Below, in pieces: positions 26,349 to 29,300 of a stretch of DNA of 64,000 nt. Source of the DNA: Dictyostelium discoideum (taxonomy: Eukaryota); contig CM000154.2 in the NCBI GenBank assembly GCA_000004695.1, positions 3,552,001 to 3,616,000 of the forward strand, written 5' to 3'. The notes beneath the pieces are model-generated. The model worked only from the letters and a program-made list of their open reading frames with translations, made no database searches and had not been told where the DNA came from. The translations under genes were made by a program, and so were the position numbers. The first letter of the stretch is position 1, and the number at the start of each line of letters is the position of its first letter.

Positions 26349-29300
26349 TTATTTATTTAAACTATTCATTTTATTATTTATTTGTTGCAACAAACGCTTA
26401 TCTTTTTTATTTTTAACAATAAAATAAGTGGTGGCAATAACTATTACAGCAGCGAAAGCGATTGAACCAACAATTATACCAGCTAATTGAGCAGTTGTTA
26501 AACCAGAATTATTTTTTGTACAAACTGAATCATCTTCATCAGAGGCTGATTTACTATCAACAAGCACTGAGAAATCTGGATCAACAACTATTGAGTTTTT
26601 ATAATTTGGAATTGTAATACCAATAAATGATTGTAATGATGATGATGAACTATCAATTACATTCAATGATGAATCTAATAAAACATTACTTATACTTTTA
26701 ACAGTATTATCAATAATAGCACGTTTAATGAATCTACCATAAAGTGAATGGTTTTCAATTTGAATCTTTAAATAATTTGAATTATCACCTGTTGATGTAT
26801 TACCAAATTGATTTGATGTGCAAATATCATTTGAGTTTGTTGTTAATGATGCTTCCATTACTAATTGAAGTTGATTTAATGAACTTTTAAATTGATATTC
26901 TGTAATTTCAATTGTATATTTAATACTAGATGGATTCATTGTTAAATTTTGATTTGCGAATTGAATTGGTGTACTTTGATTAAACCATTCTAAAGTTGCT
27001 GTTATATTTGTATTTGATACTGTTGTAAAGTATTGATTTTTAAATTCGTTAATTGGTGTAAATATCCATTGATCGAATTTATAATTATTTACTTCTTTAT
27101 TATTAAAATCTAATTCTCTTAATGATACTAATGATATTAATGATTTAAATATCATTTTTTGAGATTCTTCACTATTTGTTTCTGATGATTGACCATTATT
27201 ATCTGTTGGTATTTCAACATCTGGTTTTGTTGTATTAATTGATGGTTGTGGTACAATAATAATTTGAGAAGTACAAGTTACTCCAATCCATGGTGAATAA
27301 CAAATACAACCTGTAGATGAACAATAACCTTGATTTTTACCACCACATTGTGGATTACCAAGACATTTTTGTGGTGGATTGGTTGGAATTGGTGTTACAG
27401 TTGGTATTGGTGTTTCAGTTGGAGTAGTTGTAGGTGATTCAGTAGGTATTGGTTTTAATGAACGATCGAAATAGATTGGTTGTATTGGGAATTCATTTGA
27501 TGTGAATCCACCAGCTGTTGAAACTTTAATTTTGAATAATTTATTTGTTTTTTTAATACCTGAAAATTTAATTGCTGATGATCCATAAAATAATGCTGTG
27601 GTTGCTGAATTTGGTGACAATCCACTATCACTATAAGTAATTGTTACTAAATTAACATTTATAAAACCTCTACCATATATAATTATTTCACCATTATCAT
27701 CTGAATAATATTTATCACTTGATGTGATTACTGGTAAATTACTTGAATATGTTGTATCTAAATAATAGTTTGAATTTAAAACCATTTGAATATCTGATGT
27801 AGAATAACCGTAATAATAACCACCATTATTTACAATACCATACATTGATAATGCTATAATACCTGGATAACCAAATTCTAATGGTAATTCTGTTGAGCAA
27901 TTATAAACTGCATTATTTGCGCTATAGAATATTAATTTAGAATTACATTTTGAAATTTCTGTGTGAACTGTTGTTAAGTAAATAATTGGTAATTGATCTT
28001 GTTTTATTCCATTTGTACCTGGATCGATTGAAAAATCAAATGAAATTATTCTATTTGGTGAGCCTACATCAATTGTGGCTGCTGATGTTTTAAATGATAA
28101 TAATGTTGGTTTTGAATCAAGCATTGTTGAACCTGAACATGTAAATGGTAAAATTGTATTATCTATACCTTTATCTAATAAATTAATAAATGGATTAAGT
28201 ATTGAATATGGACCACCATTTAAAATAAACTTTGAAGCTATTTTATTTGTATCATATAATAAAACTTTAACTATTCTATATTCTTGTGATATACATGGTT
28301 GAGTAATATTAATTAAAATTTGATATTGGCAATTGAATTTATCACCAATTACATCATCGATATTAAAATTGAAATGATAAGTTGAACTATCAATTGAACC
28401 CATTACTTTAATATAACCACTTTCAAACCCATTTAAATCATCTGTAATATTAAATTTCCAACCAATTGTACCTGTTGTTGAAACTACTAAACCATTTCCA
28501 ATTTTTTCAAATGAATTAAAAATTGGGCCTTGATAGTCAAGAACTATAATTTTAAATAAAATCAAAAATTAATAAGAGTTTATTCTTTAGTGAATTGAAA
28601 ATTTTTTAATTATTTAAATATATATATTACCTGTTTTATTAACTACTAGTAATTCTTTCATTATACTATTGCTATAAATTGATAATTGTCCAACGAAAAT
28701 TGAAAATGGAATCATTCCAAACATATTATTCTTTTGTAAAATGAATTTACATTCAAATAATCCTGATGTTGTATTATAAATAAATGGGATTTTCTGAAAA
28801 GAAACCGATTCAATGTCTCTTTCTATTGGATGTGAGACAAGATCTAGTAAATTGAATAATATCGGAGCATCTTTAGGTATTTCTGTAGAATTTAAATATG
28901 CAATATTATATTGTTCACTTTCATAACTTAAATCTAAATTATTTTTTAAAAATGATAAATCTATAAAGTCTTTAAAGTTATAATCTATATTAAAAAAAAA
29001 AAAAGAATAATTTGTTAATAAAACAAAAATTTAAATTAAATCAATTTAAATTATATATAGATATATTTATATAATACAAACTATAATTCAATGGTTGAGG
29101 AATTTCAAAAACTATTAATGGATTTAATGATATTGGTGAACCATTTTCATAAGAAACCACATTCCAAATTAAATCAAAAAGATTTATTATTTTAATATCA
29201 CCTAAACCAACAACATATTCGAATGTTCCATTATAAATTGTACCAGAAACCAATATGTATTTTAAAAAATCATTTGAATCCGAAAATTTTGCACCTTTAA

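Follow-up and report, generated by a model that had tools for sequence, protein, structure and literature searches.

Four tandem genes for ComC-like proteins, located in a 64,000-nt stretch of the Dictyostelium discoideum genome (GCA_000004695.1, contig CM000154.2, positions 3,552,001 to 3,616,000 of the forward strand; hereafter the window), show region-restricted concerted evolution with conserved limits. Two parts of the last exon, the 968-nt tract D and a smaller tract A, are nearly identical in the four copies, whereas the ectodomain-coding region between them (region B) and the 3' ends of the coding sequences are old and distinguish the paralogs. Repeated short-tract interlocus (non-allelic) gene conversion is very probably the process that keeps tracts D and A near-identical in these old genes. 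Recent or ongoing conversion had been proposed in an earlier note on this DNA and is strongly supported by the contrast in synonymous divergence, by trees that group the copies by genome in one region and by orthologue in others, and by a mosaic of derived variants.

The window has a base composition of about 20% G + C and contains introns, homopolymer tracts and genes of the Dictyostelium type. The four genes (g1–g4) follow one another head to tail on the minus strand. In each, the first exon is signal-peptide-like, several short exons follow, and a last exon of ~2.2 kb completes the gene; none shares its stop codon or 3' untranslated region (UTR) with another. They were compared with the corresponding part of the chromosome-scale assembly GCA_054883475.1 (L003), with the syntenic array of a divergent D. 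discoideum isolate (GCA_054859385.1, locus tags ACTFIR; L001), which was reached via protein P0003, and with copies f1 and f2 of D. firmibasis (L002), the closest outgroup, whose synteny with the window is unproven. Loci of D. citrinum (L004) and D. dimigraforme (L005) were rejected as syntenic arrays, as they hold single family members at other locations. The genes were delimited from open reading frames (ORFs) and Pfam matches as follows:

26349..31122, minus strand: g1, whole gene, 1388 amino acids (aa); the gene call in L003 at 13535..18308 maps here
31640..36326, minus strand: g2, whole gene; the gene call in L003 has 1405 aa and is cut by the locus end
36988..41673, minus strand: g3, whole gene; probable start, placed where window position 41673 aligns with position 10001 of L001, the start of P0003
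43858..48601, minus strand: g4, whole gene; probable start, placed at a signal-peptide-like ORF (MKILTTILFLF)

In the last exon of all four genes, Pfam detected DUF7034 (111–115 bits), DUF7035, DUF7949 (53–59 bits, cut-off 27), a Cys-rich, EGF-like module of 35 residues, and the ComC supersandwich domain (ComC_SSD, PF22933; 61–67 bits, cut-off 24), all above the gathering scores. DUF7035 scored 125–127 bits in g1–g3 and 63 bits in the g4 ORF, whose start falls inside the domain, and DUF7743 is located in an upstream exon. The conserved domains are followed by a hydrophobic stretch, AGIIVGSIAFAAVIVIATTYFIV, and a short basic tail. Together with the hydrophobic signal-like N-termini encoded by the first exons, the order of ectodomain, one transmembrane (TM) helix and short tail corresponds to a predicted type I topology. 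An AlphaFold2 (AF2) model of the g1 last exon, of low confidence (pLDDT 59.8, pTM 0.36), has an ectodomain made up of beta structure throughout and one helix, at residues 691–737. The domains, the hydrophobic helix and the basic tail identify the g1–g4 products, as far as can be judged from sequence, as ComC-like single-pass surface proteins. The nearest named AX4 protein among the matches returned was DDB_G0278531 (43% identical), and a PDB sequence search gave nothing significant (a single match, E = 0.9). Neither IPT/TIG domains nor cadherin repeats were found in Pfam scans of all large exons, which returned only the domains of unknown function of the ComC family.

A multiple alignment of the four blocks, the check suggested in the earlier note, resolved the last exon into a mosaic of tract A, region B, a Pro/Thr linker, tract D and a private end, which are listed here in coding order:

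28240..28510, minus strand: tract A in g1, ~270 nt within DUF7035, close to where the last exon begins (sliding identity 0.91–1.0 in all pairs)
33573..33843 (g2), 38882..39152 (g3) and 45779..46049 (g4), minus strand: tract A equivalents, by alignment
27424..28239, minus strand: region B in g1, variable ectodomain of ~0.8 kb, comprising the rest of DUF7035, DUF7034, a further beta region and the start of the Pro/Thr linker
32753..33572 (g2), 38087..38881 (g3) and 44964..45778 (g4), minus strand: region B equivalents, by alignment
27382..27423, minus strand: Pro/Thr linker of g1, an 18-nt tandem repeat (Tandem Repeats Finder and boundary alignment)
32677..32752, 38022..38086 and 44895..44963, minus strand: equivalents of the linker repeat (Tandem Repeats Finder)
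26442..27409, minus strand: tract D in g1, comprising the end of the Pro/Thr linker, DUF7949, ComC_SSD, the juxtamembrane segment and the first two thirds of the TM helix
31739..32706, minus strand: tract D in g2 (variable-site column map, synonymous divergence, trees)
37084..38051, minus strand: tract D in g3 (same analyses)
43957..44924, minus strand: tract D in g4, the least homogenised copy, 3.3–3.4% from the other copies
26349..26441, minus strand: private end of g1 (TM end and cytoplasmic tail, 30 codons plus stop), 58–62% identical to the other paralogs and 97.8% to the orthologous copy c4 of L001
31640..31738, minus strand: private end of g2 (TM end, tail, stop), by alignment and distances
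36988..37083, minus strand: private end of g3 (TM end, tail, stop), 0–2.2% from copies c2 and c3 of L001 and 24–42% from the paralogs
43858..43956, minus strand: private end of g4 (TM end, tail, stop), 3.3% from copy c1 of L001 and 25–38% from the paralogs

The four near-identical blocks lie at the positions given in the earlier note and resemble one another far more closely than the genes do elsewhere. From the motif IPTNPPQ to the codons for AAVI, 948 nt align without a single gap at pairwise identities of 96.6–98.1%. The 18–32 differences per pair are more than the handful that had been reported. Together with 20 nt of linker, this block forms the 968-nt tract D, in which the alignment of the last exons has 50 variable columns and the longest stretch identical in all four copies measures 134 nt. 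Of the 150-mers of tract D, 21–33% have an exact match in another copy in g1–g3 and only 2% in g4, so that the expectation that short reads cannot be placed uniquely is true in part. Tract D encodes the EGF-like DUF7949, an acidic/Ser-rich linker, the ~210-residue all-beta ComC_SSD, the Ser/Asp juxtamembrane segment and roughly the first two thirds of the TM helix. The description as stalk, TM and tail thus has to be amended, with the tail excluded. Nor does the similarity continue through the stop codon. The 3' edge is sharp and lies inside the TM helix after ...FAAVI, where the density of variable sites rises from 0–4 to 13–24 per 30 nt. The last 89–90 coding nt (30 codons) are 58–76% identical among the paralogs and hold, depending on the pair, 41–67% of all differences within the originally described block, and the 3' UTRs cannot be aligned. 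The 5' edge coincides with the length-variable 18-nt Pro/Thr repeat, a minisatellite of 2.3 to 4.1 copies that makes the linker differ in length among paralogs and between genomes. Both limits of tract D are the same in L001.

Homogenisation is not confined to this 3' part of the exon, as had been assumed. Tract A has 16 variable columns in 272, and its synonymous divergence (dS) is 0–0.13 within the window versus 0.69–1.0 to D. firmibasis. Furthermore, g1 and g2 seem to have exchanged sequence over nearly the whole exon: their sliding identity is 91–100% across the last exon and their dS in region B is 0.086. The claim of a highly diverged upstream sequence is therefore correct for g1/g2 versus g3 versus g4, which differ mutually by 26–29% in region B, and incorrect for g1 versus g2.

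The similarity of the tract D copies extends to synonymous positions. According to Nei-Gojobori estimates for the different regions among g1, g3 and g4, dS is 0.05–0.09 in tract D and 0.40–0.49 in region B, and the nonsynonymous divergence (dN) is 0.011–0.020 and about 0.3, respectively. Synonymous differences are significantly depleted in D compared with B (Fisher p = 1e-10 to 2e-13), in contrast to the like synonymous divergence of the 3' block and the remainder of the genes that the earlier note had named as evidence against conversion. In the last 30 codons dS reaches 0.24–2.1 and dN 0.23–0.59, and such values hold even for the pair g1–g2.

The age of the paralogs and the lineage specificity of the homogenisation became apparent in the comparison with the divergent isolate, which belongs to the genome set of PMC12745789 that includes divergent tropical isolates. 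Its array is 90–93% identical to the window and contains at least five copies, of which c1 is g4-type, c2 g3-type and c4 g1-type; c3 is an extra truncated copy with a g3-type tail, and c5 is g1/g2-type and cut by the locus end. Distances were compared for the orthologue pairs g4/c1, g3/c2 and g1/c4. In region B, orthologues differ by 4.2–5.3% and paralogs by 26–29%, and in the tail by 0–3.3% and 23–42%, respectively. The private tails are well conserved between orthologues (dN 0–0.04), and few parts of the genes are as specific to a paralog and as conserved between orthologues as the TM end and tail. In tract D, orthologues are 2.7–3.0% apart and copies within one genome 0.4–3.4% (1.9–2.0% among g1–g3 of the window, 0.4–1.8% among c1–c4 of the isolate), and any pair of one window copy and one isolate copy differs by 2.3–5.0% irrespective of orthology.

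Counts of sites in the trios g1/g3/g4 and c4/c2/c1 gave the same picture. Region B contained 213 sites supporting orthology and the tail 36, with no site fixed by genome in either region, whereas tract D had 2 orthology-supporting and 4 genome-fixed sites. In neighbor-joining (NJ) trees, the bootstrap support for the orthologue pairs was 100% in region B and in the tail and 0–6% in tract D, where instead the window copies grouped together (80%), as did g1–g3 (89%) and c1–c3 of the isolate (80%). The paralog lineages g1/2, g3 and g4 hence predate the split of the window genome and the isolate, and in tract D a similarity specific to each genome has overwritten the old orthology signal.

The distribution of variants within tract D points to many short events as the source of this similarity. 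Of the 50 variable columns 13 are parsimony-informative. Each of the three ways to split the four copies finds support among these sites (g1g2|g3g4 at 4, g1g3|g2g4 at 5 and g1g4|g2g3 at 4), which fall into six spatial runs (permutation p = 0.026 for clustering). After polarisation with the isolate and D. firmibasis, derived bases are common to g1 and g2, g1 and g3, g2 and g4, g2 and g3, and g1 and g4 in different patches, and several differences that appear to be private to g4 are sites where g1–g3 share a new base and g4 retains the state seen in the isolate. New mutations have therefore spread among the copies since the genomes separated.

Mechanistically, conversion would proceed by heteroduplex formation between misaligned tandem copies, on one chromatid or between sister chromatids of this haploid organism, and would copy patches of tens to a few hundred bases. 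It would stop where identity collapses: 5' of tract D this happens in the 18-nt Pro/Thr repeat, and 3' of it in the paralogue-specific stretch of TM end and tail. These edges may be kept in place either by selection against genes with converted heads or tails or by a barrier that mismatches pose to strand exchange, and a barrier of dense mismatches would make them self-reinforcing.

Among the rival explanations, homogenisation mainly by repeated unequal crossing-over, with duplication, deletion and chimeric genes in a birth-and-death process instead of non-reciprocal patches, fares best and is nevertheless improbable. Unequal crossing-over probably acts on the array as well, because copy number differs between the genomes (at least five in the isolate, including the truncated c3) and a D. 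firmibasis fragment, f3, joins tract A to tract D; moreover, g1 and g2 pair in region B within the window genome as c4 and c5 do within the isolate. A single crossover, however, homogenises everything on one side of its breakpoint, and here a conserved tract A, an old region B, a conserved tract D and an old tail alternate within one exon, an arrangement that unequal crossing-over alone cannot generate. Orthologous heads and tails also occur in the same order in both genomes, and the small interleaved patches of shared derived bases suit short conversion tracts.

Purifying selection acting on the DNA or RNA itself, for example on a regulatory element, an antisense transcript or a structured RNA, without any exchange between the copies, is very improbable. 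Tract D is coding and its protein is conserved, as the low dN among the paralogs demonstrates, but its synonymous sites evolve normally between genomes and reveal no unusual constraint. Orthologue dS is 0.08 in tract D compared to 0.09–0.11 in region B. All copies are 11–12.6% from D. firmibasis in nucleotide sequence, and those of the window have a dS to this species of 0.23–0.30, a dN of 0.10–0.11 and a dN/dS of about 0.4. This normal between-genome divergence therefore excludes nucleotide-level constraint. A search of Rfam gave no match, and constraint cannot produce a grouping of copies by genome.

It is just as hard to credit that the four genes are very recent duplicates whose ectodomain and tail diverged fast under positive selection. 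The dN/dS of the paralogs in region B is fairly high (0.59–0.76), but their dS in this region is high too, which goes beyond an elevation of dN alone, and the orthologues have a dN/dS of only 0.2–0.44. Besides, g1, g3 and g4 each have an orthologue in the isolate that is 4–5% off in region B and 0–3% in the tail, and so predate the split of the genomes. An assembly artefact by repeat collapse or consensus polishing is the least credible explanation of all: near-identical kilobase repeats are a classic site of such errors, but the independent assembly L003, which matches window positions 12754..36325 in an 18.3-kb piece with 1 mismatch and 3 gaps and a 5.3-kb piece with gaps only, reproduces g1 and g2 (the two of the four copies that it covers) including their copy-specific differences, and the isolate has the same architecture with variants of its own.

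Several points weigh against repeated conversion as the explanation or limit how precisely it can be dated. The clustering test, based on four copies, reaches only modest significance, and on sequence grounds conversion is not fully separable from repeated unequal crossing-over. The L002 flanks had no match in the window, and the D. firmibasis outgroup may consequently be paralogous. Conversion after the split of the window strain and the isolate is timed against this locus alone. Finally, the G + C content at third codon positions (GC3) is not raised in the converted tract (0.073–0.089 in D, 0.070–0.105 in B). GC-biased gene conversion, whose signature accompanies vertebrate cases and serves there as supporting evidence (PMC1852091), was considered and is unsupported by these values; a raised GC3 is a common accompaniment of conversion and not a defining feature of it.

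The copies do not take part in the homogenisation equally. The g4 orthologue c1 is only 0.9% from c2 in tract D of the isolate, whereas g4 itself is the least homogenised window copy. One may speculate that the wider spacing between g3 and g4 in the window lowers exchange with g4. The spacer has the following features:

41924..43569, no strand assigned: about 1.6 kb of extra g3–g4 intergenic sequence (blastn against L001, which has 234 nt there)
42799..43107, minus strand: DDE_1 transposase fragment (Pfam DDE_1, E = 7e-9)

The fragment is a 102-aa ORF matching the C-terminal part of the DDE_1 transposase, and the extra spacer sequence looks like a decayed DNA-transposon insertion. A mobile-element origin of tract D itself was rejected: within the window, this tract is confined to the four genes. 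An unmasked self-BLAST, which was swamped by low-complexity matches, yielded no fifth family copy within the 64-kb window.

Family members with internal deletions occur in both related genomes. In c3 (L001 10001..13787, equivalent to P0003), the first ~15 codons of the last exon lead straight to tract D, with A and B missing, and in the D. firmibasis fragment f3 (L002 21118..22146) tract A is fused to tract D without region B; the conserved tracts may serve as end points of deletion or recombination. When 26349..36326 is compared with L001 14116..23787, region B unites g1 with g2 in the window and c4 with c5 in the isolate as sister pairs, with distances of 4–7.5%. The tails of g1 and g2 are 40% apart despite the similar heads, and the tail of c4 is of the g1 type. 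Two histories would account for this: exchange of the g1/g2-type head inside each genome, or a rearrangement of the array.

On the 5' side of the array in window coordinates, a 1165-aa ORF (22815..26312, plus strand) encodes a class-V aminotransferase (cysteine desulfurase-like) fused to a PP-loop ATPase (TilS/TtcA-like). This gene converges on g1, with 36 nt separating the two stop codons, and fusions of this type are widespread in eukaryotes according to the list of homologs. A homolog search with the NifS/PP-loop fusion protein found no close Dictyostelium proteins, the best matches being 59–67% identical. A cluster look-up by exact sequence for this protein came back empty, as did a look-up of the 1092-aa ORF beside g4. 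Proteins identical or nearly identical to those of the window's genes are absent from the large protein database, though a contig look-up finds them in GCA_054883475.1; negative results for close relatives in that database are therefore not to be read as absence. The window also contains three or more FNIP-repeat genes (12020..13502, 53966..54694, 57225..57474 and 58142..58807), one of which adjoins a B-box zinc-finger ORF (54725..55651). Their repeat units of ~129 nt are 85–95% identical in DNA sequence across loci more than 40 kb apart, and may represent another case of repeat homogenisation in the window.

The closest parallel is the regional gene conversion described for the clustered protocadherin variable exons of fugu, zebrafish and human (PMC1852091; Noonan et al., 2004, as cited therein), where the membrane-proximal part of neighbouring paralogs is near-identical and the 5' sequence distinguishes them (PMC1852091). 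Both systems are tandem arrays of genes for single-pass surface proteins in which neighbouring paralogs are near-identical, synonymous sites included, over the 3' membrane-proximal part of a large exon, the 5' membrane-distal ectodomain is diverged and bears the orthology signal, and homogenisation is lineage-specific. The likeness is one of evolutionary process only. The protein families are unrelated, and the ComC-like genes lack cadherin repeats, are each complete and do not share constant exons. Fugu shows a raised GC3 in its converted tract (PMC1852091) and tract D does not, and in the ComC-like genes the cytoplasmic tail lies outside the tract and a second small converted tract is found at the 5' end of the exon.

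ComC itself has EGF domains, a signal peptide and a TM segment and is restricted to group 4 dictyostelids (PMC4931340), and the comC mutant aggregates aberrantly (PMC2873529). With ComC the g1–g4 products share the ComC supersandwich, DUF7949, DUF7035, DUF7034, DUF7743, a signal-peptide-like N-terminus and one TM helix; they are family members by sequence and not necessarily comC itself. Within Dictyostelium, the allorecognition genes tgrB1 and tgrC1 are comparable as clustered, fast-evolving surface-protein genes shaped by intralocus recombination, duplication and loss, to whose paralogs short reads map poorly. Recombination drives the dynamics of the tgr genes and reportedly creates diversity there (PMC12745789; bioRxiv 10.1101/2025.10.22.684067), whereas in the ComC-like array it removes diversity. 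The tgr genes encode IPT/TIG proteins and form divergent ligand-receptor pairs; the ComC-like array has no IPT/TIG domains and is arranged head to tail, and its variable region differs between orthologues by 4–5%, with a dN/dS of 0.2–0.44, versus 2.4–3.3% in the converted tract, which in this one comparison gives no sign of extreme polymorphism. Conversion limited by selection is known from theory and from examples such as exon 5 of the red/green opsin genes (reviewed in PMC3924837). There, as here, paralogs are homogenised save for short segments that keep paralogue-specific differences; in the ComC-like genes, it may be selection that keeps head and tail unconverted. No paper on conversion or concerted evolution of ComC-like genes came up in a literature search. 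The array is a further example of a well-known process, regional interlocus gene conversion in a tandem family, and as such is ordinary and of modest general interest.

A more far-reaching interpretation, which we consider doubtful, is that the array is a modular recognition or signalling locus, in which conversion maintains a constant membrane-proximal module and selection holds apart the distal head and the private tail. If so, the constant module (EGF-like domain, supersandwich and outer TM helix) might for example bind a common partner or let paralogs oligomerise, the distal head would confer ligand specificity and the private tail a paralogue-specific output. In that case the mid-TM tract edge, which both genomes have in common, would be a selected and not a passive boundary, and Dictyostelium would possess a second diversified surface-receptor system independent of tgr.

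For work on the ComC-like family, the converted tracts have direct consequences. Trees and duplication dates must omit both tracts, as otherwise the age of the paralogs is underestimated about five- to tenfold. In tract D, variant calls from short reads are unreliable for g1–g3, and the last 30 codons together with the variable head are the best guide to orthology within the array. The array is a clean non-vertebrate example of region-restricted concerted evolution among tandem surface-protein genes. Because its tract edges are conserved in two genomes, one of them lies inside the TM helix, and the G + C content is not raised, it may also serve as a test case for whether selection or a mismatch barrier sets the limits of conversion tracts, in a haploid organism with efficient homologous recombination.

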